DNA of 27,599 nucleotides from Synergistaceae bacterium (GCA_045642025.1 JAZUIB010000003.1:1-27599); one strand, 5' to 3'; shown: positions 2,055 through 19,967, counted from the stretch's first letter. Notes: generated by a model not told the origin, from the letters alone. Made by a program: numbers and translations.

Positions 2055-2077
2055 AAATCCGCCTCTAACGGCGGATT
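2055..2077 (-). terminator. Hairpin AAATCCGCC-TCTAAC-GGCGGATT downstream of the DUF805 gene; candidate intrinsic terminator for the 4304->2097 unit
   Basis: Perfect 8-bp stem. On the minus strand it is followed by TTTTACAAAC, a short U-tract. Confidence 0.45.
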
Positions 2078-2096
2078 GTTATCAAGCAACGTATTA

Positions 2097-2705
2097 TTAA
2101 AATTTACCGCCGCAATACTTGCAGAAAGCACTGCCAGGTTCCCTTGCAGCGCCACACTGCGGGCAAAACACGGCCTGTGTTGTCTGTGACGGTGCCTCAG
2201 TTGCAGTTTGGTCAGAAATCGGATGAGGAACAGTCTGCTGTCCTTGCTGAGTATATGTTGTACAAACTTCTTTTGGATTTGGTCCATATTTATTTGCACC
2301 GGGTTGGCTATCCTGACACAATATCACAATCATATATACCCATGTTCCCAAAACCGCCAAACCTAAAAATGACATTCCGGTACAGCCTGCTTCATAATTT
2401 CCATACAGCAAACTTGCATATGAAAACACTCCCGCAAAAACCGCAAAAACTATTCCAAAAACAAACACACAGATATACAGCCAGCCTGATCTTCCCGTAT
2501 CATGCAAACGTCTTGCCAATACCGCAATGGATGGAAGAAATATCGCAATACCCCAAACAGCAGCAAGTGGAGCAGACAATATTGTCAACGCGGCATTAAC
2601 TAGCCATGAGAACAGAATAAACCACCAATACTCACTGCGCCTTGCACGACCACTGAACGTAGCATATTTTGAAAACACACTTTTTATTGCATCACCGAAA
2701 CCCAT
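2097..2705 (-). CDS. DUF805-family inner-membrane protein with C-terminal double zinc ribbon (CPQCG...FCKYCG)
   Basis: ATG at 2705 with RBS AAAGGAGAG. The N-terminus MGFGDAIKSVFSKYATFSGRARRSEYWWF is the DUF805 signature. It has about 4 TM helices. The C-terminal 25 aa form a Cys4 ribbon. It is a paralog of 5106..5681. Confidence 0.85.
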   Translation of the reverse strand: MGFGDAIKSVFSKYATFSGRARRSEYWWFILFSWLVNAALTILSAPLAAVWGIAIFLPSIAVLARRLHDTGRSGWLYICVFVFGIVFAVFAGVFSYASLLYGNYEAGCTGMSFLGLAVLGTWVYMIVILCQDSQPGANKYGPNPKEVCTTYTQQGQQTVPHPISDQTATEAPSQTTQAVFCPQCGAAREPGSAFCKYCGGKF

Positions 2706-2746
2706 ATTCTCTCTCCTTTCTTTGCCTTCACTTGATCTGTTGTATT

Positions 2747-3055
2747 TTAATACATAGATGAGAATAGATTACTCATTGCGTGTCTAAATTGTATTAATTT
2801 AATAATCAGATATAGCAAGAATAGTGTATTAAACACAACACAGCCAAGAACTATATTCATTTTTTGTTCGAGAGTGACCTTGCTCCATTTTTCCTTCACG
2901 TCTTTCACCATATCATTTTGAAGGACCACATTCTGCTGCGCAGCCACAGGAGTTACCAGTGTCTGTCGTGATGCAGATGATGCAAGCAAACTACCGCATT
3001 TTCCACAGAATTTTACTCCATCTGCTGTTTTAAAACCACATTTAGGACATATCAT
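2747..3055 (-). CDS. Small zinc-ribbon membrane protein (N-terminal CPKCG-x11-FCGKCG, C-terminal TM helix)
   Basis: ATG at 3055 with RBS GGAGGA at 9 nt. It is 102 aa with a hydrophobic stretch IVLGCVVFNTLFLLYLIIKLI. Confidence 0.75.
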   Translation of the reverse strand: MICPKCGFKTADGVKFCGKCGSLLASSASRQTLVTPVAAQQNVVLQNDMVKDVKEKWSKVTLEQKMNIVLGCVVFNTLFLLYLIIKLIQFRHAMSNLFSSMY

Positions 3056-3095
3056 ATCTATTTTCCTCCGTTTTTATATGGATTTTATGCATTAA

Positions 3096-3698
3096 TTAAA
3101 GAAGAAGTGAAAAAACAAATATTCCACACCATACAGCAAAAGGAATATAATTTTTGGTCGTTTTGGATGCTCTCACATACAAATATACAGGCACCAAAAC
3201 TATCCCAAGCCAAAGCCAGTCATCTACTTTATACCCGTTATTTTTCAGTTCGCTGACATCCTGCGTGATAAAAATACAGTTTATTACACATAATATAATA
3301 CACTGGACATAAAAATTCATTTCAGGAACTGCAATTGCAATCAACAAATCCACCAAAAGAGGTATTGTTGCCAGCGCCCAAACCCATTTTTCTGTTATGC
3401 TTCCGGCAGAGATTATAGCTGCAGTATGGCCAAAACAAGCAGCAAGTTCAGTGTTTCCGGCAGGAGTCCAACTTGTCAGACCATTTTTCCAGACTAAAGT
3501 TTCTTTTACAATCGTACCGGCTGATATCATATTTACAATCTGATTTTGCGTAAATGGTCCTGTTTTATCTACACCGTTAAAATAGAACCATTCAGCCAAT
3601 ATACCGCTCTGATAATTATTTACATCTGTTTTTGTACCGCATTGGGGGCAAAAAGCTGTATTATCAGTCAATTGCATACCACAGTTTTTACAAAACAT
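3096..3698 (-). CDS. Zinc-ribbon + GYF-like (DUF4339) domain protein with four C-terminal TM helices
   Basis: The ORF-track start at 3704 is TTG. ATG at 3698 has RBS GAAGGAGG at 9 nt. The N-terminal ribbon is CKNCG-x11-FCPQCG. The segment WFYFNGVDKTGPFTQNQIVNMISAGTIVKETLVWKNGLTSWTP matches the DUF4339/GYF_2 pattern. Four hydrophobic helices follow. Confidence 0.8.
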   Translation of the reverse strand: MFCKNCGMQLTDNTAFCPQCGTKTDVNNYQSGILAEWFYFNGVDKTGPFTQNQIVNMISAGTIVKETLVWKNGLTSWTPAGNTELAACFGHTAAIISAGSITEKWVWALATIPLLVDLLIAIAVPEMNFYVQCIILCVINCIFITQDVSELKNNGYKVDDWLWLGIVLVPVYLYVRASKTTKNYIPFAVWCGIFVFSLLL

Positions 3699-3716
3699 TG
3701 ACAAAAACCTCCTTCG

Positions 3717-4304
3717 CTATTGGGCATTATACGGACAGTTCAGAAATTTGAGTATACTCTGTGCCTGCTTAGAATTCATATAGAACACAAATGTTCGCCC
3801 TTGCGATTGGTGACCTATATAACAAAGATGCGATTTATTATACTTAAATTTGGCATTTCCACCCCACAGAACACTTAAGTCCTGATACTCGGAAGATGCG
3901 TAATTCTTCTGGCTTTCAACAGCCCATTTAAGCTGATTTCTCATTGCAATAATTTCTTCCGTATAATATGAATTAGGCAATTCAATAAGAAGTGCGTTGC
4001 CTTCTACCTTAGTCATTTTTACAGTTGCAGGTTTCAGACTATTGTCATCAGCAGCAATAGAGCAATTTACATTGAGTATATTTCCGTTTACGGTTTGATT
4101 ATAACTGTTCCATATATAAAGAGCAGCAAGCAGAAATACTGACAATGTTAAAATAAATATTCTATTTCCAATGTCTTTAATCGCTTTTACCAACTCGATA
4201 TTCTGTTCAGCATGACCTGCAGGTTGAGGTGTAAGCGTCTCACCGCATATTCCGCAAAATTTTACTCCGTCTTCAGCTTCTGCACCGCATTTCCAACATT
4301 TCAT
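3717..4304 (-). CDS. Zinc-ribbon / single-TM / extracellular-domain protein (unknown about 130-aa ectodomain)
   Basis: ATG at 4304 with RBS AGGAGGAA at 8 nt. The N-terminal ribbon is CWKCG-x10-FCGICG. The TM helix is IFILTLSVFLLAALYIW. Confidence 0.8.
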   Translation of the reverse strand: MKCWKCGAEAEDGVKFCGICGETLTPQPAGHAEQNIELVKAIKDIGNRIFILTLSVFLLAALYIWNSYNQTVNGNILNVNCSIAADDNSLKPATVKMTKVEGNALLIELPNSYYTEEIIAMRNQLKWAVESQKNYASSEYQDLSVLWGGNAKFKYNKSHLCYIGHQSQGRTFVFYMNSKQAQSILKFLNCPYNAQ

Positions 4305-4373
4305 ACAAGTGTTCCTCCTATTTTCAATATACTTTTAGTACAAAATACGAATATATGTTATTGATATAACCTC

Positions 4374-4401
4374 ATTATACTACATTGTAATAATTTGTCT
4401 A
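4374..4401 (-). promoter_or_regulatory. Candidate sigma-A promoter (-35 TAGACA, 16-bp spacer, -10 TATAAT) about 70 nt upstream of gene 3717..4304
   Basis: Minus strand reads TAGACAaattattacaatgtagTATAAT. It lies downstream of terminator 4703..4727. Confidence 0.45.
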
Positions 4402-4702
4402 ATATTCCTAAGACTTACTAATAAACAATATCATCCTTCCTCTTCTTTATACCGTACGTATTTTATTGCCCTGTCATTGCACATATCATACACAACGCCT
4501 AATATTTCCATATCCCGTATAATCTCTATGTTCGTATTCAGCTAAAACTTTGCGTGTTGATTTTATTACTCTTGCAGTACATCTTATTGTTACTTGGCTA
4601 TAAATATATATCATTTTTCTTTGTTGCAAATATAACGTTTCTCTAAATTCAGACGGATAACAAAACAGATTGCTATATACGTTGTGACAAGGATACATAA
4701 AG

Positions 4703-4727
4703 GTCCGAAAGCGCAAAACTTTCGGGC
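4703..4727 (-). terminator. Hairpin GTCCGAAAG-CGCAAAA-CTTTCGGGC; candidate terminator after small gene 4754..4987
   Basis: 9-bp stem with one G-U pair. On the minus strand the trailing sequence CTTTATGTAT is T-rich. It overlaps the spurious ORF 4486..4764. Confidence 0.5.
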
Positions 4728-4753
4728 TTCTAAATCTCACAAAAGCACATATC

Positions 4754-4987
4754 TTACTGAACATACTGACTGCCGACTAGATGTCCTTTTTCATTGTACA
4801 TATAGGCATAATTACTGCGTTTTACAGTAACAGTAGAGTCTGTATATCCCTGAAGTTCGCCATACTGCGAGAACATCAGCTGATTCTTTTCGTTGTAAAC
4901 ACAGGCATAATTACCGCGCTGTACAGCCATGCCGATAGAAAGCATAAGCGCAAGGACAGATACATACTTCATCAAATGTCTGTTCAT
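4754..4987 (-). CDS. Small secreted protein (77 aa) with signal peptide and two copies of an NYAxxYNEKxxLxxSQY repeat
   Basis: ATG at 4987 with RBS AGGGGA at about 8 nt. The signal peptide is MKYVSVLALMLSIGMAVQ. The internal repeat is GNYACVYNEKNQLMFSQYG / SNYAYMYNEKGHLVGSQYV. Confidence 0.6.
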   Translation of the reverse strand: MNRHLMKYVSVLALMLSIGMAVQRGNYACVYNEKNQLMFSQYGELQGYTDSTVTVKRSNYAYMYNEKGHLVGSQYVQ

Positions 4988-5105
4988 ATCTTCGTCCCCT
5001 TAAATTTGGATTTAGATTATTGCAGTATATTTTGCTCATAAATTATTGTACCGTTTGTACAATAATTTAATTTTAAACAGCAATTATTTAAATCTGGGAC
5101 AATAG

Positions 5106-5681
5106 TTAAAGTTTGCTGCCACAGTATACACAACAGTTTGTACCTGGGGCAACAGGTGCGCCGCAGTTCGGACATTCTGTCAGTTGTGGTACGGTATTTG
5201 AGCTCTCAAATACAACAGGCTTTTCAATTACAGGCTGAACAGGCTCTTTGGGCTGTTTATCCTCTCCGGCATGTTCTTTGGGATTTGGTCCGTATTTATT
5301 TGTCCCGGGCTGGCTGTCTTTTAAGGGAAGAATGAGAATATAAATAAAAATTGCAACTCCTACAAGTATCATAAGCACACCCAAAGCACCTGCACCATCA
5401 CAGCAAAGTACGCCAATACAGCACAACACTATAGCAAGCAAATAGAGTCCCAGATAGGAACGACCGGATTTTCCAACATCATGCAGTCTACGGACAAAAA
5501 CTGCAACTCCGGGCACAAATGCAGCTATCATCCATAGAGTCCATAACACAGGAATGGTGCCGAGAAGGACAGACATCAACAAATTCAGCAGCATAAAATA
5601 CCAATATTCACTGCGCCTTGCACGACCGCTAAAAGTAGCATATTTTGAAAATACGCTTTTTACCGCTTCACCAAAACTCAT
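5106..5681 (-). CDS. DUF805-family membrane protein with C-terminal zinc ribbon (CPNCG...CCVYCG); paralog of 2097..2705
   Basis: The ORF-track start at 5699 is TTG. ATG at 5681 has RBS AGGGGA at 8 nt and gives MSFGEAVKSVFSKYATFSGRARRSEYWYF, aligning with the paralog's N-terminus. Confidence 0.85.
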   Translation of the reverse strand: MSFGEAVKSVFSKYATFSGRARRSEYWYFMLLNLLMSVLLGTIPVLWTLWMIAAFVPGVAVFVRRLHDVGKSGRSYLGLYLLAIVLCCIGVLCCDGAGALGVLMILVGVAIFIYILILPLKDSQPGTNKYGPNPKEHAGEDKQPKEPVQPVIEKPVVFESSNTVPQLTECPNCGAPVAPGTNCCVYCGSKL

Positions 5682-5707
5682 ATTTATTCCCCTTTTCAAA
5701 AGAATAT

Positions 5708-6667
5708 TTATTCAGATACTGCCGAATTTTTAACCCATGCGTATCCGTATCGCGGGTGCTTTATAAATGTCCATTCTCCGCGAAGTTCTGACACGTGTAT
5801 GTTAATCAAAGCTGTCTGTGCACCTTCAGGCGATGCAACGTCAGGTGATAGTTCATACACTGGAGAACGTTCATCTGAATCAGGATATTCGCATATTTTT
5901 ACAGAATCTCCCGCCATTGCCCTGTCAAAGATCAATGCGCTGTCATTTGGCATAACATATAAATCGGCATAATCTGCAGTAATATATGCATCAGCTACAG
6001 GAGTAAACGGGTTTATGCCTTTATTGCAGGAAATCATTCCATAAGGTCTGTCAGAATACATTTTGTTTATATAGAAATTATCAACATAACGTATCCCGTT
6101 TGCGCTGATAATCCTGTGTTTTTCATACACATTTGCAGTAAGAGTACCGTTTTTCGCGGTTTCTCTGATACCAAAATACCCTGTTAGGAATTCTTCGCTT
6201 ATACCTCTGCCGTAAAGTCGTAAAACAAGTTTGCACTGCGCGTCATAATATGCCGATGAGACTGATCTGTCTAATATTGAGGTATCACCTGCGTTAATCG
6301 CTCTGACTCCTCTGTTGACATCTGCGCTGTAATATGTTGCAATTTCTGCATGCGAAACATTTTTCTGTGTTTCTTTCTTTGGGGTTTCTGCATGAGTAGC
6401 GACAGTTGTGTTATCAGTACTTCCGGTTACAGATTTATCAAACAGCATATAACACGCCATCATAAGTATAATTCCGCAGAGCACAACAATAATAAGCATT
6501 GTCCTATTATTATGATGTTTCTCTATTACAGCAGGCTGTGTGTATCCGGCTGGTATTTCAGATGTTTTTTTTGCATCAGGTACCTTCATACAAGCAGATG
6601 CGCCACATGAAGGGCAATAACTTAATCTATCATCAAATTCAGAACCGCAATATTCACACTTATTCAT
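5708..6667 (-). CDS. Zinc-ribbon / TM / large extracellular-domain protein (about 319 aa; C-terminal end resembles an SH3b-like fold)
   Basis: The ORF-track start at 6703 is TTG. ATG at 6667 has RBS AAGGAG at 7 nt and gives MNKCEYCGSEFDDRLSYCPSCGA. The TM helix is MLIIVVLCGIILMMACYMLF. The C-terminus ...GEWTFIKHPRYGYAWVKNSAV resembles the SH3b ends seen elsewhere in the cluster. Confidence 0.8.
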   Translation of the reverse strand: MNKCEYCGSEFDDRLSYCPSCGASACMKVPDAKKTSEIPAGYTQPAVIEKHHNNRTMLIIVVLCGIILMMACYMLFDKSVTGSTDNTTVATHAETPKKETQKNVSHAEIATYYSADVNRGVRAINAGDTSILDRSVSSAYYDAQCKLVLRLYGRGISEEFLTGYFGIRETAKNGTLTANVYEKHRIISANGIRYVDNFYINKMYSDRPYGMISCNKGINPFTPVADAYITADYADLYVMPNDSALIFDRAMAGDSVKICEYPDSDERSPVYELSPDVASPEGAQTALINIHVSELRGEWTFIKHPRYGYAWVKNSAVSE

Positions 6668-6755
6668 CGTTTTCTCCTTATAATTCTGCAGTCCCGTGTA
6701 CAAAACTGAAAATTATATGCTACTCAAGTCTATCTTAGCACAAATATACTTCAAA

Positions 6756-7487
6756 TCAGAAAAATTTCATTTCAGTAATGCAGGTGTCCTGCCATCGGCT
6801 GCCGTCACGAACATCATTAATGACAATTTTTACAGTATCAGTAACAAGAGGGTGATCAAATGTTATTCTCTGCTCCCCCATACTATCCTGTATAGTGCAG
6901 TTTACGGTAGTTCCGTCTGCAGCTATAACACTTAGCGATACAGGAACTCCGTTTTTATAAAACAAATCAGATCTTTTCTGATGCCCTGCCCATATACTGA
7001 AGCCGTGTATTCTCTGCATACCGTTAAACTGGACACTAATATATTCCCCAATACCCATGCCTGCGACACCTTCCGCCCAACACGACTTAAAATTATTGTC
7101 AAAAATTTTTGAAGCATCATGAGAATATGAGTTTTCAATGTCGTATGACGACGCAGAAACAGACACAATGTTTACATTATTTGCGTCCGCAATATTATTC
7201 TGCTCATTTTCTGCAAATGACCTGGCAGTCGCAGTCTGCGAAGTATTCTGCGAAACAGAAGTGTCTTCACCGCTTTTATTGTCTTTACTGACAGATATAA
7301 CAGTAATTGCAGCAAAGACAATAACTGCAACAGACAGTATCGCTATCAACATATTTTTGTTTATTTTTACTGCATTGCTGGTTTGTTCTGTCTCTTTTTC
7401 ACTTTCTGTGGCTGTTGCGGCACCACAATTGGGACAATAACTCAGCATATCATCAAATTTGCTGCCACAGTAATGACATCGTTTCAT
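6756..7487 (-). CDS. Zinc-ribbon / TM / discoidin-like (F5/8 type C) domain protein
   Basis: ATG at 7487. The N-terminus is MKRCHYCGSKFDDMLSYCPNCGA. The TM helix is MLIAILSVAVIVFAAITVI. The C-terminal segment (about 130 aa: ...ASSYDIENSYSHDASKIFDNNFKSCWAEGVAGMGIGEYISVQF...TEMKFF) fits the discoidin pattern. Confidence 0.8.
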   Translation of the reverse strand: MKRCHYCGSKFDDMLSYCPNCGAATATESEKETEQTSNAVKINKNMLIAILSVAVIVFAAITVISVSKDNKSGEDTSVSQNTSQTATARSFAENEQNNIADANNVNIVSVSASSYDIENSYSHDASKIFDNNFKSCWAEGVAGMGIGEYISVQFNGMQRIHGFSIWAGHQKRSDLFYKNGVPVSLSVIAADGTTVNCTIQDSMGEQRITFDHPLVTDTVKIVINDVRDGSRWQDTCITEMKFF

Positions 7488-7525
7488 ATTTTGGGACCTC
7501 GCTTTATATTCTGATTATAAATGTA

Positions 7526-8380
7526 CTAATAACGCTTAATGCGCTGCAAAGCCTTAACAGCATTTTCTTCTCCCGCTTCCGCGGCTTTCTGATACCAATA
7601 TATAGCTCGGTTTATATCCTGTAAAACACCTTTCCCCGAATGATACATCGTACCGAGATTATACATAGCCGTAGTATTACCATTTTCCGCTGCCAAAGCA
7701 AACCATTTAACAGCCTCATCATTATTCACAGATGTTCCCCAGCCGTATTTATACATTGCTCCAAGGCGATTCATGGCATCTTTTTCCCCTTTTTCGGCAG
7801 CTTTACTGTACCATTCAAATGCCTTATAGTCATCTTTGTTAACACCTATGCCGTATTTATACATTACACCCAGACGTTTCATTGCCGTCGCATGGCCTTT
7901 TTCAGCTGCAGATTCAAAATAAAGCTTGGCTTCAGCATAATTTTTTGCATTATACAGATTGTTGCCTTTGCTGTAATCAGCATTTGAATCAATATCAGGT
8001 GCATTTTTTACCGAAACATTCTTATGCGGGGCTTCTGTATTAGAGTCAATATTACTTCTGACTACAGGAGTATTTTGTTCTTTCAACGTATTATTAGCAT
8101 TTACATTCTCCTGTACCACAGTATGAGATGCATTGGAGACAACTGCAGTACTAGATTGTGTATTCTGCTGAACAGATATCTTCGTACCACTTTGACTGCC
8201 TTTACTGACGTTTAACAAAACAAAAGTACCCAAAGCTACAACTGCACCGATCAGTATCGATATCAGCAGCAAATTTTTATCTAATTTTTCCGTATGACTT
8301 TCAAAAACTGTAGCACCACAGTTGGGACAATAATGCAGTGAACTGTCAAAATTGCTGCCACAGTATTGGCACTGTTTCAT
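7526..8380 (-). CDS. Zinc-ribbon / TM / Sel1-repeat (TPR-like) protein
   Basis: ATG at 8380 with RBS GGGAGA at 9 nt. The N-terminus is MKQCQYCGSNFDSSLHYCPNCGA. The TM helix is LLLISILIGAVVALGTFVLL. The C-terminus has at least 4 Sel1-type repeats (AMKRLGVMYKYGIGVNKDDYKAFEWYSKAAEKG...). Confidence 0.85.
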   Translation of the reverse strand: MKQCQYCGSNFDSSLHYCPNCGATVFESHTEKLDKNLLLISILIGAVVALGTFVLLNVSKGSQSGTKISVQQNTQSSTAVVSNASHTVVQENVNANNTLKEQNTPVVRSNIDSNTEAPHKNVSVKNAPDIDSNADYSKGNNLYNAKNYAEAKLYFESAAEKGHATAMKRLGVMYKYGIGVNKDDYKAFEWYSKAAEKGEKDAMNRLGAMYKYGWGTSVNNDEAVKWFALAAENGNTTAMYNLGTMYHSGKGVLQDINRAIYWYQKAAEAGEENAVKALQRIKRY

Positions 8381-8419
8381 GGCTTCAATCTCCCATACAT
8401 CATATATTGTCGAATATAT

Positions 8420-8448
8420 GCAGACAAGCGAAATAATCGCTTGTCTGC
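8420..8448. other. Perfect palindromic hairpin GCAGACAAGCG-AAATAAT-CGCTTGTCTGC between genes 8461..8961 and 7526..8380; possible terminator/attenuator or operator
   Basis: 11-bp perfect stem with a 7-nt loop. Flanking sequence is A/T-rich but has no clean U-tract. Confidence 0.4.
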
Positions 8449-8460
8449 GTGATGAGATTT

Positions 8461-8961
8461 CTATCTGATATACTGATGGCTGACCCAGCCTTTTCTGTCT
8501 TTGTATTCAACCTGATACCAAAATTCATTTATATTACCGTCAAGAGCATCAAAAAATTGGCATCCTGTGACCAAAACTTCTTCATTTCCGGGGAAACAAT
8601 ACAGCACTGGGGAGTTTTTACTGGCTTTTTGCCTCATATTAACCCTTGTTCCCTTAATATGACGCTTCGGAATCTGTACAAACTGACCATAAATCCAGCC
8701 ATTTTCCTCTCCGGTGCCTTCTTCAATATTTATATCAATCTTGTACCAGGGATATTTTTCACCAGGGTTATGGTGTTTTCCGCATAAAATAAAACTATTG
8801 CCTTTATTCATTTGATACAACACAGAGGCACCTTTGTTGGGATTTTTCCTTACATTGACATTGTTGCCTGTAACTATTGGACCCAGAAAAGATTCAGCCA
8901 ACGCAGTCCCCGCAATGAATACCGACAAAACCACAAGCAGCATAATAATTTTCTTCTTCAT
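8461..8961 (-). CDS. Secreted protein with two tandem bacterial SH3 (SH3b-like) domains
   Basis: The ORF-track start at 8967 is TTG. ATG at 8961 has RBS GGAGG at 8 nt. The signal peptide is MKKKIIMLLVVLSVFIAGTALA. There are two copies of the motif NVNVRKNP...GWIYGQFV / TRVNMRQKAS...KGWVSHQYI. Confidence 0.8.
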   Translation of the reverse strand: MKKKIIMLLVVLSVFIAGTALAESFLGPIVTGNNVNVRKNPNKGASVLYQMNKGNSFILCGKHHNPGEKYPWYKIDINIEEGTGEENGWIYGQFVQIPKRHIKGTRVNMRQKASKNSPVLYCFPGNEEVLVTGCQFFDALDGNINEFWYQVEYKDRKGWVSHQYIR

Positions 8962-8994
8962 AATCAAACCTCCAAAATTAATTTGAAATTATAT

Positions 8995-9459
8995 TTACTG
9001 CACATATTGTGCTGATACCCAGCCGTATTTGCCTTTGTAATAAATATACACCCAAGTACCGTCATAATATGTCGCATTGCCAAGCACCCAAACGTCCTCA
9101 TACCGAGGGAAACAATATAAAACCCCTGCTTTTTTGCTTGGTCCCTGTCTCATATTTACTCTTGAACCTGATATATAACTTTTATAAATATTTACATACT
9201 GTCCGTATATCCAGCCTGCGTTTACATCATATTCTGAGGAAACAAATCTGTACCATGGATATTCTTCACCCGGATTTTTATGCACTTCAATAATTTTACC
9301 GTAGTTTCCGCTATTAAGCTGATACATAACTCCAGCGTTTATATTCGGCGCACGTCTTACATTAACATGTGTGCCATTAACGGTAGGCAGAGTATAAGCA
9401 AAAGCGGTGCCGGTTAAAAGAACTGCCATAATTGCAAGTACTATAATAACTTTTTTCAT
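8995..9459 (-). CDS. Secreted protein with two tandem SH3b-like domains (paralog of 8461..8961)
   Basis: ATG at 9459 with RBS GAGGT at 9 nt. The signal peptide is MKKVIIVLAIMAVLLTGTAFA. The repeats are HVNVRRAPN...GWIYGQYV / SRVNMRQGPS...GWVSAQYVQ. Confidence 0.8.
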   Translation of the reverse strand: MKKVIIVLAIMAVLLTGTAFAYTLPTVNGTHVNVRRAPNINAGVMYQLNSGNYGKIIEVHKNPGEEYPWYRFVSSEYDVNAGWIYGQYVNIYKSYISGSRVNMRQGPSKKAGVLYCFPRYEDVWVLGNATYYDGTWVYIYYKGKYGWVSAQYVQ

Positions 9460-9520
9460 TTTTCATTACCTCACAAACATAAATGTAACTTACAAATTTT
9501 TATACAAATTCATTCTGCCA

Positions 9521-9994
9521 TTACCAATCAGCGATTGCACTAAACACAATCCTGTCAACACTGCCATCCAGCACCTGTTGTTTAACCGGTTTTGTGCAAC
9601 AGACAATTACATGCCCCTGTTTATCGCAGATAGCAGCATAATCAACCACCATCTGTCTGCCGTTAAGTGCAAATTTTGCTTTCACATACATATAAAAAGG
9701 TGTCTGATTTAACCTGTATTTATTCCTTACTGAATTTTTTATACTCTGTGTGCGGTATGCAATCAGTTGGTCTGCATAGTAATAATTGCCATTTCCGGAC
9801 GTTGGAGCATAGTAATATGCCTTATCTGCTGTAAGTTTTGCCCTTTGCCAGTTTGACCTAAGGTTGACAAACAAAGGACTTCCGCAAGGCTTGAAGTGCT
9901 GTGTTCCGGGAACAAAATATACTGCCGAAACTTCAGGCACAAAGACCACTGTAAGCAATATAAACGTAAATAAAAATAGCAGTTTCTTTTTCAT
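9521..9994 (-). CDS. Secreted hypothetical protein (Tyr/Cys-containing, about 157 aa); start uncertain (9994 vs 10018/10027)
   Basis: The open frame runs 9521..10027. ATG at 9994 gives a classic signal peptide MKKKLLFLFTFILLTVVFVPEVSA. The RBS is weak. Confidence 0.65.
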   Translation of the reverse strand: MKKKLLFLFTFILLTVVFVPEVSAVYFVPGTQHFKPCGSPLFVNLRSNWQRAKLTADKAYYYAPTSGNGNYYYADQLIAYRTQSIKNSVRNKYRLNQTPFYMYVKAKFALNGRQMVVDYAAICDKQGHVIVCCTKPVKQQVLDGSVDRIVFSAIADW

Positions 9995-10128
9995 ATACAC
10001 TTTCACGTCATTATTCATAATAAACATATGTTATATATAAAAATACCTCACTCTGCGCAGTAATATTTCGTAATATCAGAGCATATTTTACCAGCGACAG
10101 AATGAAGTATTAAATTACATAATAACAA

Positions 10129-10995
10129 TTATCTGAGATTTATATCAATATTTTTTTGCTTTCCATCCGGATCCATAAACACAACTGTTATACCCATATG
10201 ATCCTTTGCACATTGTCTGATATGGTCTCTGAGCTCCTGAGCCGAGCAGTTTTTCGTATTTATATTATTAACCATGTAAAGTTCTGTGCCCGCCATAGCC
10301 CCTAAATTTGCCATTGCGCTTCCTGGCCTGACACTTTCGATTATAAGATACCCTTCCCTGCTTTTAGCTTTGTCGGATACATCAAAACCTGCAGATTCAA
10401 GCATACTGAACTGCGTATCATTGGAAAGCAGCACACTTTCACTAGACATATGTATTTCTCTGCGCACTTTTTCTGCCAAATCCATATCCGGTACACGTGC
10501 AGTTACAGTTATATATCTTCCAGTTGAATCCAGTTCAAAATCGACTTCTTCTCCACCATCCATGCGTGCTGTAAGCACATCATTATTATTGATTTCTGCA
10601 GACACATTATTATCCATAAACATTCTTCTGGTGGCTTCCATTGCACGTTGCGCACCGACCTGCGATGCCGCAGCAACAAAATCTTCTGCATATCCTGTAG
10701 CATGGTCAATCAGCGTTTTCTGCACTTTTATTCTCTCTTCATTATTCTGGCTGTTATTATCGGCGGCGCCAAGCAATGCACCCAATACAGCTAATCCTGC
10801 CACAATACCTGCGGCAGTACCTATTGATGAGTCATCTGAACTGCTGTGATGGTGATGGTGGTGATGCTGCGGGCGTGGATGCGGACGTGAATGTTGCCGC
10901 TGTGGCTGCGGGCGCGGATGATGCCCGCGCGGACTGGCAAATACAGGTGTAGCGGCAAGTAGAATTATCATGAGTACAGCTATAACTTTTTTCAT
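10129..10995 (-). CDS. Signal-peptide protein with His/Pro-rich tract (PRPQPQRQHSRPHPRPQHHHHHHHSS), hydrophobic Gly/Ala segment and C-terminal PDZ-like domain
   Basis: ATG at 10995 with a strong RBS AAAGGAGAGG. The signal peptide is MKKVIAVLMIILLAATPVFA. A run of 7 His follows. The C-terminal 75 aa (GYLIIESVRPGSAMANLGAMAGTELYMVNNINT...ITVVFMDPDGKQKNIDINL) fit the PDZ fold pattern. Confidence 0.8.
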   Translation of the reverse strand: MKKVIAVLMIILLAATPVFASPRGHHPRPQPQRQHSRPHPRPQHHHHHHHSSSDDSSIGTAAGIVAGLAVLGALLGAADNNSQNNEERIKVQKTLIDHATGYAEDFVAAASQVGAQRAMEATRRMFMDNNVSAEINNNDVLTARMDGGEEVDFELDSTGRYITVTARVPDMDLAEKVRREIHMSSESVLLSNDTQFSMLESAGFDVSDKAKSREGYLIIESVRPGSAMANLGAMAGTELYMVNNINTKNCSAQELRDHIRQCAKDHMGITVVFMDPDGKQKNIDINLR

Positions 10996-11039
10996 TGCGA
11001 CCTCTCCTTTATTTACGAATTAAACCGTTTTTAATAGTT

Positions 11040-11609
11040 TTAATATTCGTTCTGTATCCTGCGAAGATTTTCTTCTCTGCGTTTTTTGGCTGCTTCTCTT
11101 GCGGCATTGTGTTCCGAGTTACTCGCCGAACTTTTAACAACTGAATTTGTATTAGGTTTTGAGGAGGTAACTTTATTTTTGTTCACGCGCGGAACAACTA
11201 CCGATTTAGTCGTTTTTCTTGATTTATCAATCCTTTTTATTTTCTTTTGAGCAACGGATACCCGCGGTTGTTTTTTGTCAGTTTTAACTATCACGGCATT
11301 ATGAACAACCTTTTGTTCCTCTGTTACAGTATGCCGAACAGTATCAGGCACTGCAGATTTATCCGGTTCGTTATCTGTTACACATAAAAAATACATAAGA
11401 CAACATACTGCTATAACAGCAAGCAGTATAAATATTTTTTTCCCGTTCTTGACGGACTTATCAGACTTCTCGCTCTGCTCCTGTATAACTCGTTGCGTGT
11501 ATGCCTGTTTAGCAGCCTCTTCTGAATATGTAGCACCGCAATAGGGACAATAACTCAAACCACTGTCAAAAAATTCCCCGCAGTACGGACATTTTTTTGT
11601 ACCTGCCAT
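11040..11609 (-). CDS. Zinc-ribbon / TM protein with Lys-rich basic C-terminal tail
   Basis: ATG at 11609. The N-terminus is MAGTKKCPYCGEFFDSGLSYCPYCGA. The TM helix is IFILLAVIAVCCLMYFLCV. About 110 aa of K/R/S/V-rich low-complexity sequence follow. Confidence 0.75.
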   Translation of the reverse strand: MAGTKKCPYCGEFFDSGLSYCPYCGATYSEEAAKQAYTQRVIQEQSEKSDKSVKNGKKIFILLAVIAVCCLMYFLCVTDNEPDKSAVPDTVRHTVTEEQKVVHNAVIVKTDKKQPRVSVAQKKIKRIDKSRKTTKSVVVPRVNKNKVTSSKPNTNSVVKSSASNSEHNAAREAAKKRREENLRRIQNEY

Positions 11610-11740
11610 TATAGTTATCTCTGCTCCTTATCTACATTATCCATTCGATTTGTATCACATCTTTTATTAATTCTGCTTACTTGTTTCAGATCTATTTTGG
11701 ACATCTTGACCTTTTGTATTTTTTTCATCTTCTTTATTTT

Positions 11741-12622
11741 TCAGAAATTCGCTAATTTTGTCTGTGTTGCTTTTAATGCTAGTAACTGATGCACACCTCT
11801 ATCTTGACTGCCTTTTTTCTTTTTATCTTCAGTACGTTCTTTGTTGCTTTCTCGCGGACCACTATCCTGAGTGGTGCTTTTTGCAGGCGGCGTAATTTTG
11901 CCATTTCTGACTATAACTATCTTCATCCCGCTTTTAATATATTTCTTTAACTCATGAACATCTGTATTTTTAAGCCTTATGCATCCTTCAGTCGCATCCT
12001 TGCCGATTGATTTAGGGTCATGAGTTCCGTGAATTCCTATTCCGTTCCAGCCTGTATGAAGTCTGATAAACCATGGACCATAGGCATTTTTTATAACACC
12101 TTTACCGTCATGGAAATCATGTGACCATGTGCTAGCATCCTGTACTGACTGCACATAAAAATCGTCACCTTCGGGTGTACGAAAGTCCCCAGACTTGGTT
12201 TTATTTCCGTGATTTTTTCCTGTTGCAACTCCATACGTTTCTATCGGCTTTGGATTTTTGCCGTCCATAACATATAGCTTATGTGTCCCTTTATCAATCA
12301 ATATCCATTTTCCCTTTTCAGGGCGACGGTAACCGCTGGTTTGCACCGTCTGTGATGAAGACCCGTTTTGTTTTTCGGGGTTCTTTGGTTCTTTAGAAAC
12401 ATTTTTTTGTGCAGCAGAACTATTGCTTGCATTACCAGTTGATTTTGAAGGCGTCTCCATTTTTTTCTCACTTGATGTAGTTTTTTCACGTTTTTCTACA
12501 TCAAAACAAAAAGCTACTCTGTCAAGCGCAAGACCTGCAAAAACCCCTGCGACAAATACCAATGATAGTATTATTAGCGTTTTTTTGCGTTTCTTTGTGC
12601 GAGCGATTTCATTAGTATACAT
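11741..12622 (-). CDS. L,D-transpeptidase (YkuD-family catalytic domain) with N-terminal TM anchor, Ser/Lys-rich linker and K/E-rich C-terminal tail
   Basis: ATG at 12622 with RBS AAGGAGA. The TM helix is LIILSLVFVAGVFAGLAL. The catalytic signature is ...GIGIHGTHDPKSIGKDATEGCIRLKNTDVHEL (His...Cys motif of YkuD). Confidence 0.85.
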   Translation of the reverse strand: MYTNEIARTKKRKKTLIILSLVFVAGVFAGLALDRVAFCFDVEKREKTTSSEKKMETPSKSTGNASNSSAAQKNVSKEPKNPEKQNGSSSQTVQTSGYRRPEKGKWILIDKGTHKLYVMDGKNPKPIETYGVATGKNHGNKTKSGDFRTPEGDDFYVQSVQDASTWSHDFHDGKGVIKNAYGPWFIRLHTGWNGIGIHGTHDPKSIGKDATEGCIRLKNTDVHELKKYIKSGMKIVIVRNGKITPPAKSTTQDSGPRESNKERTEDKKKKGSQDRGVHQLLALKATQTKLANF

Positions 12623-12637
12623 ATTGTCTCCGTCTCC

Positions 12638-13204
12638 TTATTTTACAAACTGACCGTATACCCAACCTTCATATCCTTTATAAGAAATTTTGCACCAAGG
12701 ATATTTTCCGTCATACACTGGAGATACCTCAGAAACATAGACTTCTTCATAACCAGGGAACTGGAATATTACACCTGCGGACAAACTCGGATACTGCCTC
12801 ATATTAACATGTGTACCGTTAATTAAACACCAGCCGGTATGATTATATGATTGTTTTTTTTCTGGAGGCGCTTCAGTTTCAGCCGAAGCTGAACTCGAAT
12901 AATTGTTAGAAGAAGATGTATTACTTACAGCACTATTGTCTATCGTCACATTGCTATCCGTTATCTTTACACCTATGCTGAAAGCAAGTATTACAAGCAT
13001 AATTATTGCAGCCGCTATTCCTATTATTTTTGATGTGTTATCACGTTGCTGAGCACTTGGCTGCGTATATGGCGTCTGTTGAGTTTGTCGCGGTTGCTGC
13101 ATGATTGGAGTCTGTGCTGACACCTTCGGCAATACTGCGCCACAGTGTGGACAATAGTTCAGTTTATCATCTACAACGGAATCACAATACAAACACTTTT
13201 TCAT
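12638..13204 (-). CDS. Zinc-ribbon / TM / Ser-rich linker / C-terminal SH3b-like domain protein
   Basis: ATG at 13204 with RBS AAGGGA at 9 nt. The N-terminus is MKKCLYCDSVVDDKLNYCPHCGA. The TM helix is IIGIAAAIIMLVILAFSIGV. The C-terminus THVNMRQYPS...GYEGWVYGQFVK resembles the SH3b domains of 8461/8995. Confidence 0.8.
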   Translation of the reverse strand: MKKCLYCDSVVDDKLNYCPHCGAVLPKVSAQTPIMQQPRQTQQTPYTQPSAQQRDNTSKIIGIAAAIIMLVILAFSIGVKITDSNVTIDNSAVSNTSSSNNYSSSASAETEAPPEKKQSYNHTGWCLINGTHVNMRQYPSLSAGVIFQFPGYEEVYVSEVSPVYDGKYPWCKISYKGYEGWVYGQFVK

Positions 13205-13232
13205 TCAAATATCCCTTTATGGTTAGCAGTAA

Positions 13233-13925
13233 TTAGAAACTGCCTCTGCTGTTTATAGCGCGTCCATGTTTGCGTTTGGCGAATAGATCTTTCAATTCTG
13301 TAAGAACAGATTTTATTTTCTCTTCTTCCTCAGCAGAACTAAATAATGTTTCAAGTTCTTTCAGACTGGAGTCGATATCTTTATCTATATCACCAAAGAC
13401 TGTTTTATCCGAGTAATGCGCATCTTCACAAAGTTGTTCAAGCTCTGACCTGTAATCGCTGCATTTGCTGTCAGATTTCAGCTGCATTAGTCTAGATTCT
13501 ATATCCTGCATAAACGCAAATTTTACTGCTAATGCATCATCAGAGGTCTTTATTTTTGAAGCCGCGAGATAGAAAAGAAGGAATAATACACATAAAGCAA
13601 CAATTCCTACCGCCTGATGCATACTGTACCGTGTGACTTCGTCATAGTATGAATCACGCATAAATACCATTATAAGCGTAAATAGAAAATATAGCACAGA
13701 AACTGTACTGAAAGCACTTATATTAAAAGCTCTTGCATAGTCCAGTACAATTACAACCAACGCGCTGAACAGTACCAATTCAGCAATAATCACAAACAAA
13801 AGGGAAATAACATCTATTCTGTTAGCCTGAATTCCCCAGTCGCTACAGAAAAAAATCGCCAGTGTTGTCAGTAATATTAACAATTCTATAACAATTAAAG
13901 AAGTTATTTTGGAACGTTCTGTCAT
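13233..13925 (-). CDS. Four-TM membrane protein with acidic coiled-coil C-terminal domain (possible YdjH-like partner of the SPFH protein)
   Basis: ATG at 13925 with RBS GGAGGGG. Four hydrophobic helices sit in the first 125 aa. About 100 aa of E/D/K/L-rich helical sequence follow. It is 15 nt downstream of the SPFH gene. Confidence 0.75.
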   Translation of the reverse strand: MTERSKITSLIVIELLILLTTLAIFFCSDWGIQANRIDVISLLFVIIAELVLFSALVVIVLDYARAFNISAFSTVSVLYFLFTLIMVFMRDSYYDEVTRYSMHQAVGIVALCVLFLLFYLAASKIKTSDDALAVKFAFMQDIESRLMQLKSDSKCSDYRSELEQLCEDAHYSDKTVFGDIDKDIDSSLKELETLFSSAEEEEKIKSVLTELKDLFAKRKHGRAINSRGSF

Positions 13926-13940
13926 ATTGAACCCCTCCGC

Positions 13941-15245
13941 TTAAAGCAATTTTGTCCCGCATTCAGGGCAAAATTTTGTACTCTGTTCTATTTCCTTACC
14001 GCAGTTAGCGCATTTTTTGATTAGTGCAGCTCCGCATTCAGGGCAAAATTTAGCTTCTGGGGTAATTGCAGCTCCGCATTTAGGACACGGTTGAGGGAGT
14101 GTTTTGCCGCAGGCAGCACATACTTTTGCGTTATCATCTAAATCAGCGCCGCAGAACGGACACGGATTATAGTGGTCACCGCACTGAGGGCAGAATTTAG
14201 CAGTCTTCGGATATTCTGTACCACATTTATTACAAGTAATCATATCTGCAGATTTTTTGTTTTCTCTTGTGCTTGTATCTTCTGTATCTTCACCGCAGTG
14301 TCCGCAGAATCTAATACTGACAGGCATATCGCGGCCGCATTTAGGGCAGCGCTTCATTGGGGCTGTATTGATATTCTGCGCCAATGTACCCATCTGGTTG
14401 CCCATAGGAGCACCTATTCCAACTCCCATTCCCAAACCTATGCTAGCCCCCATTAGACCAGCCTGCCCAGAGCTCGGATTTGTGGCAGCACCTTCCAGTG
14501 TATCAAATGACCGCTCTTGAACATAGCTGTATCCAATAATATCCATCTCTGCACGCTTTGATAAAGCATCGCGGAGTTTAACAACTGCAGGGTCACTTTC
14601 TGGAACGTTAATATCGTTAACATAGAAGTTAATCAATCCAATGCCATAGTCGCTGAATATCTTTCCCATACGCTCTTTAAGAAATTCTGAAAGTTCATCA
14701 AGATATGCATTGATTTCAAGAATACTTACCTGTTTTTTAACCAAATACTGTGATATTGCATCTTTTGCTTTTGTTAAATAAAGACCTTTGAAATACAACT
14801 GTATGTCTGCTTTATTAAATCCATGAAGCGTACCTACAAGTTTCATAAGAAATTTTCTTGAGTCTTCTATTTTAATACCAAACTGTCCAAAAGCACGCAC
14901 AGATATAAGCAGCTTATATTTAGGATCCTGTAACTGTATCGGCGAACTGGTTCCCCATTTTATATCAAGAGAATGTATTTTGTTTACATACCATACTTCA
15001 GCAGTGAACGGTGATTTACCGCCAAACGGAATATTAACAATTTTGTTTAAAATCGGGATATTGGCAGTATCAAGAGTATGTCTGCCTGGCCCCATCAAGT
15101 CACAGGCCTGACCGCCTTTAAACAGTATTGCTTCCTGTGATTCATTAACTATCACCTGCGTCCATGTTCCTAACTCCTGACAAGGGAACTTCCACGCAAA
15201 TGTTTCCGGCCCGCCGTCATATTTGACAACATTAATTATAGCCAC
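13941..15245 (-). CDS. SPFH/band-7 (COG4260, YdjI-like) domain protein fused to five C-terminal double zinc-ribbon repeats
   Basis: The ORF-track start (GTG at 15254) abuts the RBS. GTG at 15245 lies 8 nt after AAAGGAG and gives MAIINVVKYDGGPETFAWKFP..., matching the YdjI-family N-terminus. A Gly/Met-rich linker follows. Then come 5 CxxCG-x8-11-FCxxCG units (residues about 300-437). Confidence 0.85.
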   Translation of the reverse strand: MAIINVVKYDGGPETFAWKFPCQELGTWTQVIVNESQEAILFKGGQACDLMGPGRHTLDTANIPILNKIVNIPFGGKSPFTAEVWYVNKIHSLDIKWGTSSPIQLQDPKYKLLISVRAFGQFGIKIEDSRKFLMKLVGTLHGFNKADIQLYFKGLYLTKAKDAISQYLVKKQVSILEINAYLDELSEFLKERMGKIFSDYGIGLINFYVNDINVPESDPAVVKLRDALSKRAEMDIIGYSYVQERSFDTLEGAATNPSSGQAGLMGASIGLGMGVGIGAPMGNQMGTLAQNINTAPMKRCPKCGRDMPVSIRFCGHCGEDTEDTSTRENKKSADMITCNKCGTEYPKTAKFCPQCGDHYNPCPFCGADLDDNAKVCAACGKTLPQPCPKCGAAITPEAKFCPECGAALIKKCANCGKEIEQSTKFCPECGTKLL

Positions 15246-15366
15246 TGTCAACACTCCTTTTTATAATGATGTTACTAATATAATATATTTTTTTGATAAT
15301 TTAATGTACTTGCAGTCCAATCATACTATAGCAAAACATTCGTACATGGAAAGTACTTCGCCAATT

Positions 15367-15396
15367 ATTATAATTTAGTATATTTTATGTTGTCAA
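15367..15396 (-). promoter_or_regulatory. Consensus sigma-A-type promoter (-35 TTGACA, 18-bp spacer, -10 TATAAT) about 115 nt upstream of the SPFH gene; likely drives the accessory cluster
   Basis: Minus strand reads TTGACAacataaaatatactaaatTATAAT. It sits in an AT-rich ORF-free spacer. Confidence 0.5.
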
Positions 15397-16091
15397 TTAC
15401 ATTTTTACACAATATGTGTATTTACCAGCATTTAAAATTTAAAATTTATAATTTATTTTTTTACAAATGCATTGCCGCTTATCTGCGACTATTCATCTAC
15501 ATAGCTTCTAGGACTTATGAATATTGCATATTTTTTCGTCAATTATATCGATTCCCTCTCTGTTATAGTAAACAGATCCCTGCAGAAGACATTTTTTCTT
15601 CAGTATATTTTGCAAAACAAATGTTTCATGTTCAATGGCAAATGTAACGTGCCTGTACAGCAACAAATATTTATTTTATACAGTCTTCGTCAAGGTTATA
15701 ATATTTTACAGTTGCTTTGAATATTCTCTCATTATTTTTCAGTTTGACACGTCTGCTGTAATTAAGATTGAGTTTCTGTTCACCAATATATACTGCAATG
15801 TATGTTTATTCAGTATTGATTGTTACATTTTCTGAAAATTTACTACTGAAATGTACAGTTGTTTTCATATTGCTTTTGAATTTTCCGTTGACCGAAAGTG
15901 CTTTTTCTGTCAGAACCTTTGAACAATGTATCTCGTTCTGGTTTTCGTAGTCCGTTAGCGGTCCTTCGGAAAGTCTGTATTCTTCTCACGTCTTAACTAA
16001 TTTTACTGGTTCGTTTTTGTGTTTCTCTCATCTTATTTGGGTCTTACAACGAGAAGACTTTTAATAGAACAATAATGCTATATAAAATTTA

Positions 16092-16119
16092 AGACAGCCT
16101 TCCGAAAGGAAGGCTGTCT
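16092..16119 (-). terminator. Perfect palindromic hairpin AGACAGCCTTCC-GAAA-GGAAGGCTGTCT immediately downstream of ntpD; intrinsic terminator of the V-ATPase operon
   Basis: 12-bp stem with a GAAA tetraloop. On the minus strand the trailing sequence TAAATTTTATA is T-rich. It lies 8 nt after the ntpD stop. Confidence 0.75.
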
Positions 16120-16126
16120 TTGTCTG

Positions 16127-16753: not shown

Positions 16754-16763
16754 TGAAGGTCAC

Positions 16764-19944: not shown

Positions 19945-19967
19945 ATATTTCGCCTTCCCTTTCTCTG

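Follow-up and report, generated by a model that had tools for sequence, protein, structure and literature searches.

SPFH proteins are membrane organisers found in all domains of life. How an SPFH protein that lacks an anchor of its own finds the bacterial membrane and its clients is known only for YdjI of Bacillus subtilis. YdjI has a C-terminal zinc finger, and both the formation of YdjI foci and the recruitment of PspA require two further proteins, YdjG and YdjH (PMC8581546). In two-hybrid assays YdjH binds YdjI and PspA, and YdjG binds YdjH (PMC8581546). Here, we describe a related locus in a 27,599-nucleotide stretch of DNA from the metagenome-assembled genome of a gut Synergistaceae bacterium (GCA_045642025.1, JAZUIB010000003.1:1-27599; the whole stretch is referred to below as the window). 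Its key elements are a gene for a soluble SPFH protein with five C-terminal zinc ribbons (SPFH-5xZnR), a gene for a membrane protein that we call T230, and a 13-kb array of co-oriented genes in which membrane proteins with zinc ribbons (ZnRs) recur. On the sequence evidence, the array is not a conserved unit; it elaborates a widespread YdjI-like cassette, as yet uncharacterised, on the largest scale known.

Ravi et al. describe the B. subtilis operon as ydjFGHL, the band-7 plus ZnR protein being written YdjL, evidently YdjI (PMC11237479). YdjG comprises two ZnRs, an NTF2-like domain and a transmembrane (TM) segment, and YdjH a TPM domain and a coiled coil (PMC11237479). In ydjG and ydjH mutants the cell-wall synthesis machinery is mislocalised under stress (PMC8581546; PMC11237479; bioRxiv 10.64898/2026.02.06.704340), and a 2026 preprint renames the system SamGHI and treats it as a membrane stress sensor (bioRxiv 10.64898/2026.02.06.704340). 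Membrane-linked zinc ribbons have also been studied away from SPFH proteins. The CX2CX10CX2C motif found in Llmg_0524 and in Llmg_0526 of Lactococcus lactis binds zinc, and its deletion from Llmg_0524 produces a cell-wall (lysozyme-resistance) phenotype (PMC4628341), whilst in Myxococcus xanthus the cytosolic ZnR and GYF domains of GltJ recruit partner proteins (PMC11135422).

The SPFH gene of the window starts at a GTG codon (position 15245) with an AAAGGAG site 5′ of it. Its 434 amino acid product is identical to database protein P0001 and replaces a 437 amino acid open reading frame (ORF). Residues 26–220 match the Band_7_1 model (PF13421) with 152.8 bits against a cutoff of 24, compared with only 26 bits for Band_7, which places the protein in the Band_7_1 subfamily, the YdjI-like group that we take to be COG4260. 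The ribbons score 117.6 bits with DZR and 112.3 bits with Zn_Ribbon_1, and no TM segment was found by hydropathy scan. As in the classical SPFH scaffolds HflK/C, the flotillins FloA/FloT and QmcA–YbbJ, a helical region comes after the SPFH domain, and the protein would be expected to form membrane-associated oligomers; it differs from them in lacking a TM segment or hairpin and an NfeD partner, and in its subfamily.

Homologues of SPFH-5xZnR are abundant, with at least 5373 at E ≤ 1e-10 (those listed being ~430 amino acids long) and at least 567 stretches in species-representative genomes, mostly from Clostridia with some from Deltaproteobacteria and Synergistaceae. Genome homologues are 58–70% identical to the window protein across phyla, and in a 20-sequence alignment all 20 of the 20 ribbon cysteines are invariant. 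The nearest relatives, at loci L092 and L003, are 79% and 68% identical respectively; a metagenome scan returned no relative closer than 70%. No solved relative is detectable by sequence, and an AlphaFold2 (AF2) model built from the 20-sequence alignment was unusable (predicted local distance difference test, pLDDT, only 55). Their annotation in Clostridia goes no further than ‘SPFH domain-containing protein’ or ‘membrane protease subunit (stomatin/prohibitin family)’, and we found no paper describing the SPFH-5xZnR/T230 cassette, the literature searched being incomplete.

T230 is the name given here to the family of the protein encoded at 13233–13925, the second gene of the locus. A word-indexed search returned the query only; the family was found by a full HMMER scan, which identified 188 cluster representatives at E ≤ 1e-3, all ~230 amino acids long. 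T230 belongs to no Pfam or NCBIfam family and has no TPM match. In the AF2 model (pLDDT 94) the fourth TM helix runs into a long cytoplasmic helix followed by a three-helix bundle, an arrangement with no specific neighbour in the PDB. The family has a conserved LYExxKYSDK motif. By hidden Markov model, a T230 gene was recovered from 71 of 78 genome loci (those with enough downstream DNA among the 80 in which ORFs were called), directly 3′ of the SPFH gene in 64 of them, and in 24 of 31 independent metagenome loci. It is still the next gene where the SPFH protein is not of the five-ribbon form: beside a 339 amino acid relative with no CxxC ribbons (L150), and beside four-ribbon relatives of 38% identity (L147–L149), at which genes encoding an N-terminal ZnR (N-ZnR) appear only five to six genes further on. 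The two neighbours evolve at very different rates, T230 being only 20–44% identical between loci where the adjacent SPFH-5xZnR is 58–70% identical. We consider it very probable, from conservation and gene order, that SPFH-5xZnR and T230 form the conserved core module of the locus.

How does this module compare with the B. subtilis system? The likeness to PspA–YdjGHI lies in a soluble Band-7/SPFH protein without a TM segment, in which one or more C-terminal ribbons follow a low-complexity linker; in a co-encoded multi-helix membrane protein with a helical or coiled-coil region and an ...RGSF C-terminus (YdjH; T230 in the window); and in a co-encoded membrane protein with a zinc ribbon at its very beginning (YdjG; the N-ZnR proteins of the window). 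The differences are equally clear. The window has no pspA gene, PspA_IM30 having no match among its products or in the annotated relatives L003, L006, L092, L093 and L094, and T230 lacks the TPM_phosphatase domain. There are five invariant SPFH ribbons here compared with one in YdjI, the SPFH gene comes first, and the Synergistaceae host has two membranes. Instead of the single YdjG with its NTF2-like domain, the ZnR partners number one to eight and their periplasmic domains are diverse; the sole NTF2-like signal in the array is a weak TcaA_5th match (E 0.047) in the ectodomain encoded at 5708–6667, for which no PDB relative was found.

The comparison with YdjH and YdjG covered their termini, which were read from the primers used for them: SRGSF at the end of YdjH, MIISYKCPNC at the start of YdjG and MGGGF at its end (PMC8581546). 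The window T230 also ends in SRGSF, the family tail is of the K-R-G-G-F type, and 59 of 71 T230 homologues have a G-x-hydrophobic tail. This tail may be a docking peptide that T230 has in common with YdjH and YdjG. Because of the analogy with YdjH, the constant adjacency to the SPFH gene and the tail motif, we infer that T230 anchors an oligomeric SPFH assembly under the inner membrane. A preliminary description of the locus, made from the sequence without database searches, had drawn on B. subtilis YdjG as the tether of both YdjI and PspA, whereas the two-hybrid data show YdjH contacting both and YdjG contacting YdjH (PMC8581546). The likelier membrane anchor here is T230, which that description had not singled out.

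Beyond T230, ZnR genes recur 3′ of the SPFH gene in other lineages. Counting genes from SPFH in the genome loci, the proportion encoding a ZnR is 82% at +2, 32% at +3 and 21% at +4, compared with 0–4% upstream. In 76 loci the third gene, of which there are one to three copies, encodes a protein with two TM segments, a winged helix-turn-helix-like (wHTH-like) part and, at the C-terminus, a CxGCGA...CEYCGSP ribbon (2TM-wHTH-ZnR). The cassette SPFH-5xZnR/T230/2TM-wHTH-ZnR is widespread in Clostridia and resembles the window in its SPFH protein (58–70% identical), in having T230 next and in having a ZnR membrane protein after that. Neither the window nor L092 has the 2TM-ZnR family, and a few other loci lack it too; in the window, L092, L064 and L066 its position is held by N-ZnR proteins, the window having eight N-ZnR genes plus two genes for DUF805 proteins with ZnRs. 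Across 112 non-redundant loci, 21 of the 591 genes at +1 to +8, compared with 4 of the 828 elsewhere, encode an N-ZnR together with a TM segment (N-ZnR+TM); the odds ratio is 7.6 (p = 1.6e-5).

The partners carry varied ectodomains. Among 38 N-ZnR neighbours in Clostridia, five have PASTA and Lipoprotein_Ltp domains; such a ZnR-TM-PASTA-Lipoprotein_Ltp gene follows the cassette in L079 (9230–10078), L055 (12838–13656) and three other loci. Ltp is a phage superinfection-exclusion domain. Other N-ZnR proteins beside SPFH carry DUF4352, DUF5067 and other ectodomains, and the partner in L003 is a ZnR-TM-YkuD protein with a weak YkuD match. In L092, a Sel1 homologue of the protein encoded at 7526–8380 lies three genes 3′ of SPFH (224.7 bits); this ZnR+Sel1 protein has no TM segment by hydropathy scan.

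The array itself (Table 1; genes are named below by their lower coordinate) is much as the preliminary description had it, with all genes on the minus strand between 2097 and 15245 and intergenic gaps of mostly 8–131 bp. Eighteen genes are credible, rather than the twenty first counted: the ORFs 4486–4764 and 5017–5175 are probably not genes, the span of the former being filled by a hairpin (4725–4705) and a TAGACA-16-TATAAT site (4401–4374). Eleven of the 18 products bear ribbons, as had been noted, all of the form CxxC-x10-CxxC. These are at the N-terminus in eight (12638, 11040, 7526, 6756, 5708, 3717, 3096 and 2747), at the C-terminus in the two DUF805 proteins (5106 and 2097), and in five copies in the SPFH protein. 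Ribbon, single TM helix and outward module had been claimed for all eight N-ZnR proteins; this fits six, but 3096 has a ZnR-GYF arrangement with several TM segments and 2747 almost no outward module. Pfam searches recovered the SPFH, zinc ribbon, SH3b (SH3_3 in three proteins), YkuD, Sel1, F5/8 type C (F5/8C), GYF and DUF805 families that had been predicted. They did not support the PDZ domain proposed in 10129, for which the match (E 0.024, 15.5 bits) lies below the cutoff of 23.2. The absence of any transporter, kinase, sigma factor, nuclease or mobile-element family from 2097–15254 was confirmed. Since the host is a two-membraned member of the Synergistota and not a Firmicute, the outward modules face the periplasm, and the surface display once suggested for them does not apply.

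Table 1. Features of the locus and its borders, in the direction of transcription
Feature	Position (strand)	Remarks
Boundary	16091..16127 (-)	V-ATPase D stop codon at 16127, then bidirectional terminator; sister-genome homology ends
Promoter-like site TTGACA-18-TATAAT	15367..15396 (-)	12/12 by consensus match only; ~120 nt 5′ of SPFH start
SPFH (Band_7_1), 434 amino acids	13941..15245 (-)	Gly-rich linker, then five C-terminal CxxC-x10-CxxC ribbons; Band_7_1, DZR, Zn_Ribbon_1
T230, four TM helices	13233..13925 (-)	No Pfam/NCBIfam family; tail ...NSRGSF
ZnR (type A)-TM-SH3b, bitopic	12638..13204 (-)	SH3_3 41.5 bits; ZnR 4-21; TM 60-78; D1 repeat copy
L,D-transpeptidase YkuD, N-terminally anchored, without ZnR	11741..12622 (-)	67.6 bits, cutoff 23.4; TM 15-33
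ZnR (type A)-TM-K/S/V-rich low-complexity ectodomain	11040..11609 (-)	Zn_ribbon_3, DUF7575; TM 59-77; D1 copy
His-rich secreted/anchored protein	10129..10995 (-)	His7 run; P/R/Q/H-rich stretch; no Pfam match at E ≤ 0.01
Secreted protein, hydrophobic N-terminus	9521..10027 (-)	Start may be internal MKKK at 9994
Secreted, two SH3b	8995..9459 (-)	SH3_3 56.9 bits in two stretches
Secreted, two SH3b	8461..8961 (-)	SH3_3 69.1 bits; paralogue of 8995-9459
ZnR (type A)-TM-Sel1 repeats	7526..8380 (-)	Sel1 126 bits; D1 copy
ZnR (type A)-TM-F5/8 type C	6756..7487 (-)	NADase_transloc/F5_F8_type_C, 91.3 bits; D1 reference copy
ZnR (type A)-TM-ectodomain of unrecognised fold	5708..6667 (-)	Start probably ATG 6667; D1 copy ends at 6667
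DUF805 multi-TM, C-terminal ZnR	5106..5681 (-)	DUF805 69.8 bits; Zn_ribbon_3 29.8
77 amino acid secreted protein with internal repeat	4754..4987 (-)	DNA repeat D6, 99-nt spacing
Terminator-like hairpin after 77 amino acid gene	4705..4725 (-)	Eight-pair stem, then weak T tract
Second promoter-like site TAGACA-16-TATAAT	4374..4401 (-)	11/12 consensus; within 449-bp gap
ZnR (type B)-TM-ectodomain without known family	3717..4304 (-)	Zn_Ribbon_1 30.6 bits; TM 49-67
ZnR (type B)-GYF-multi-TM	3096..3698 (-)	GYF_2 53 bits; Zn_Ribbon_1 32.8; TM segments 108-153
ZnR (type B)-TM mini-protein, 102 amino acids	2747..3055 (-)	Zn_Ribbon_1 30 bits; TM 67-85; hardly any outward module
DUF805 multi-TM, C-terminal ZnR	2097..2705 (-)	DUF805 83.5 bits; paralogue of 5106-5681
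Two more co-oriented secreted-protein genes	1422-1925, 434-922 (-)	Beyond 2097; GC 0.36-0.37; array membership uncertain

The N-ZnR proteins resemble Staphylococcus aureus TcaA and Llmg_0524 in having an N-terminal CX2CX10CX2C motif, one TM helix and an extracytoplasmic domain. This layout is found in 12638, 11040, 7526, 6756, 5708 and 3717 but not in 2747 or 3096. The NCBIfam TcaA equivalog model gives only ~20 bits against a cutoff of 550, and then over the N-terminal 70–80 residues only; the ectodomains of the window proteins (SH3b, Sel1, F5/8C) also differ, and no SPFH linkage has been reported for TcaA or Llmg_0524. The 3096 protein shares with GltJ the order ZnR-GYF before its membrane segments, both soluble domains being cytoplasmic. 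It is much shorter than GltJ, scores 18 bits with the NCBIfam GltJ model (cutoff 450), and no gliding machinery is present here. In keeping with the earlier view of the modules as peptidoglycan-directed, SH3b and YkuD domains occur in the array (the translated YkuD protein having the catalytic HGTHD...EGCIRL motif), as do the weak YkuD match in L003 and the PASTA and Ltp domains in five of the 38 Clostridia neighbours.

Several of the array genes have a common origin. Five genes have the type-A ribbon motif C-x-Y-C-G-S-x-F-D-D-x-L-S-Y-C-P-x-C-G-A, and their 5′ ends make up a 68-nt DNA repeat family (D1) of 65–79% identity, with similarity running on through the TM helix. The type-B genes 2747 and 3717 share a 94-nt 5′ repeat (D3) that includes the ribosome-binding region. 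The two DUF805 proteins (5106–5681 and 2097–2705) are 41% identical, and the two secreted SH3b proteins (8995–9459 and 8461–8961) 44%. Taken together, these repeats and paralogous pairs argue that the array grew by local duplication with exchange of ectodomains.

On balance, we favour an explanation in two layers. The first, which comparative genomics shows to be conserved, is the scaffold module of the soluble five-ribbon SPFH/Band_7_1 protein and T230; T230 would hold the oligomeric SPFH protein beneath the inner membrane, much as YdjI needs YdjH and YdjG. The second, which the same comparisons show to be lineage-specific, is a tandemly duplicated and domain-shuffled family of bitopic proteins, each made up of a ZnR at the cytoplasmic N-terminus, a single TM helix and a module facing the periplasm, interspersed with secreted peptidoglycan-directed proteins (YkuD, two-SH3b) and the DUF805-ZnR proteins; in this sub-lineage the array stands in for the usual third gene of the cassette, 2TM-wHTH-like with a C-terminal ZnR. 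A more tentative element, which we think possible but on the unlikely side, is that the ribbons dock onto the SPFH platform, the cytoplasmic ZnRs serving as interaction tags that bring envelope-facing proteins to the SPFH/T230 platform or under its control. Peptidoglycan binding and remodelling in the periplasm would in this way be coupled to a sub-membrane scaffold for envelope maintenance or a stress response.

A bolder and, in our judgement, doubtful extension is that SPFH-5xZnR and T230 lie at the heart of an undescribed system, widespread in anaerobes, that organises membranes, with the T230 tail as anchor and the ribbons as a modular address code. If this were true, the five SPFH ribbons would capture membrane proteins with a matching cytoplasmic ribbon: 2TM-wHTH-ZnR proteins in Clostridia, ZnR-TM-ectodomain and DUF805-ZnR proteins here, the window holding the largest known client set and linking periplasmic peptidoglycan binding and remodelling to one scaffold. 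The locus points to thousands of SPFH-5xZnR proteins in Clostridia, Synergistota and Deltaproteobacteria and to T230 as their putative, unnamed anchor. Should the ribbons be docking tags, they would provide a testable rule for client recruitment to an SPFH platform and a role for the very common genes that gut anaerobes carry under the label ‘zinc-ribbon domain-containing membrane protein’. As a lineage-specific expansion, the 13-kb array is of value chiefly as a natural list of candidate clients.

A number of observations weigh against the two-layer explanation. T230 shares no detectable sequence homology with any known anchor, its match to the YdjH tail spans five residues only, and in the two-hybrid assays YdjG, the ribbon protein of B. 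subtilis, contacts YdjH and not the SPFH protein YdjI (PMC8581546). Only 15 of the 112 loci have any N-ZnR+TM gene at +1 to +8, and at four loci SPFH and T230 are seen but a ZnR partner is not, so that ZnR partners are not obligatory in cis. In ~90 loci nothing beside SPFH corresponds to the YkuD, secreted SH3b, His-rich, DUF805-ZnR, 168 amino acid or Adhesin_E-like genes; the two exceptions are in L003, where the 77 amino acid repeat protein has a homologue and SH3 a distant match. In a reverse-neighbourhood test with homologues of the F5/8C protein, three short contigs were recovered, none with a visible SPFH gene and two of them cut within 1.5 kb on one side. Lastly, the promoter-like site proposed at 15367–15396 (TTGACA-18-TATAAT, 12/12 by consensus) is present, but a single operon running from it is unlikely and was rejected: given the terminator-like hairpin and the second promoter-like site (TAGACA-16-TATAAT) in the 449-bp gap, the array comprises at least two transcription units, and the last four ZnR genes probably have a promoter of their own. 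The hairpin is the probable end of the first unit.

These last features bear on a different possibility and the main rival, that of simple accretion, in which a separate set of periplasmic cell-wall binding and remodelling proteins, self-sufficient and made up of the ZnR-TM and peptidoglycan-directed products, merely adjoins the SPFH/T230 module and has expanded by tandem duplication in a variable low-GC region, its ribbons serving stability, topology or partners other than SPFH. Such an arrangement fits the non-recurrence of the accessory genes, the two or fewer N-ZnR+TM genes at any other locus, the hairpin with its second promoter-like site and an array that arose by duplication. It fits, too, the company kept by F5/8C homologues on the contigs without visible SPFH: Peptidase_M15 and a YkuD-like protein in L164 (105–2860), and Peptidase_M15, SH3_3 and an 841 amino acid ZnR+Sel1 protein in L166 (1567–8192). 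One ZnR-TM-F5/8C gene lies in an unrelated neighbourhood, and no link to SPFH is reported for the organisms in which N-terminal ZnR membrane proteins such as TcaA and Llmg_0524 exert their effect on the cell wall (PMC4628341). We nevertheless regard accretion as the unlikelier course of events, if a perfectly possible one. The third gene of the cassette is almost always a ZnR-bearing membrane protein, N-ZnR+TM genes are 7.6-fold enriched 3′ of SPFH across distant lineages, in this sub-lineage these genes stand exactly where the missing 2TM-ZnR gene would be, at gaps of 15–28 bp, and the contigs without SPFH end within 0.1–1.5 kb on one side. The expectation that ZnR genes would recur next to SPFH in other genomes was thus borne out for the ZnR membrane genes (82% at +2, and the 7.6-fold enrichment of N-ZnR+TM genes) but not for the accessory genes. 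The 13-kb system envisaged as a unit is not supported, sister genomes holding other genes at the same place and other loci at most two N-ZnR+TM genes.

That common genes for zinc-ribbon and secreted proteins came together by chance and share no function, an outcome that the preliminary description had set against its own proposal, is extremely improbable. ZnR modules are short and common and most of the products have no assigned function. The N-ZnR+TM type, however, accounts for eight of the 18 genes in the window, the largest number among the 112 loci, compared with 0.5% of flank genes in those loci and no more than two genes per locus elsewhere. The DNA-level repeat families speak for local duplication, the genes are co-oriented with gaps mostly below 130 bp, and the core is conserved in more than 100 loci.

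The genomic setting sheds light on how the cluster came to be here. Upstream of it lies a complete V-type ATPase operon (16127–24802, minus strand; subunits I, K, E, C, F, A, B and D plus a small first gene), the A subunit of which clusters at 90% identity with proteins from Synergistaceae and Candidatus Equadaptatus faecalis. Sister Synergistaceae genomes match the window by blastn with 81–82% DNA identity across 16127–27072, the match ending exactly at 16127. GC content is 0.45–0.51 in the ATPase operon compared with 0.33–0.42 in the cluster, and in the Synergistaceae-like contig L003 it is 0.34–0.38 in the SPFH cluster compared with 0.46–0.51 in the flanks. What lies 3′ of the V-ATPase operon differs in each of three relatives: L091 has cdd and then mraZ, rsmH, penicillin-binding protein and mur genes, L087 has HicAB, radical-SAM and serine/threonine kinase genes. 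The SPFH gene finds its best genome matches in Clostridia, at 70% identity or less. Given this low-GC variable region and the clostridial affinity of the SPFH gene, the whole cluster is accessory and was probably acquired horizontally.

A variable position of this kind, with the cluster absent from sister genomes and GC dips here and in L003, is also what a conflict or exclusion island might show, the locus acting in defence or surface exclusion (against phage adsorption, DNA entry or interbacterial competition) with the SPFH protein as a sensor or effector of membrane integrity. The phage-derived Lipoprotein_Ltp domain in five of the 38 Clostridia N-ZnR neighbours, the cassette found beside integrase, HNH, Peptidase_M78 and RadC genes, and the ERF and DUF932 genes of L164 are in line with such a role. 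We judge it quite improbable all the same. PADLOC 2.0 returned no match for the SPFH protein, for T230 only AbiTi at 20 bits on the coiled-coil segment, and otherwise low-complexity PD-T4-6 matches, none of them meaningful. Pfam searches of the window products found no nuclease, NTPase, protease or toxin domain. SPFH-5xZnR is rare and distant in phage (eight records, below 25% identity), only distant homologues (below 40%) being present in the phage and plasmid collections, and 58–70% identity across phyla is unlike fast-evolving defence genes.

Some further features of the locus and its relatives can be noted. The 10129–10995 product has a signal peptide followed by SPRGHHPRPQPQRQHSRPHPRPQHHHHHHH and then a second hydrophobic segment, and may be a periplasmic metal-binding protein. 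The 9521–10027 product has no Pfam, NCBIfam or PADLOC match. The repeat of the 77 amino acid protein has the form Y-x-Y-N-E-K...G-x-Q-Y, with a weak match to DUF3836 (E 0.055), and homologues occur twice in the SPFH neighbourhood of L003 (6948–7133, E 7.9e-7, and 15785–16399). Beyond the array, the 1422–1925 product is Adhesin_E-like (37.1 bits) and a strong terminator lies at 379–346. One Clostridia cassette (L006/L095) is flanked by helix-turn-helix, HNH, sigma70_r4-like, integrase, Peptidase_M78 and RadC genes (1769–9293; 16200–18092), which suggests that it sits within or beside an integrative element. Beside the V-ATPase operon of L087 is a divergent gene encoding a 138 amino acid protein together with a serine/threonine kinase gene (14475–16813), the HicAB pair directly following the kinase gene; the same pair of 138 amino acid and kinase genes lies just upstream of the SPFH cluster in L003 (7212–9373), with 64–67% DNA identity. 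At the far end of the window, three tRNA genes stand in a row on the minus strand (26766–27027): two tRNA-Met(cat) and one tRNA-Leu(taa).

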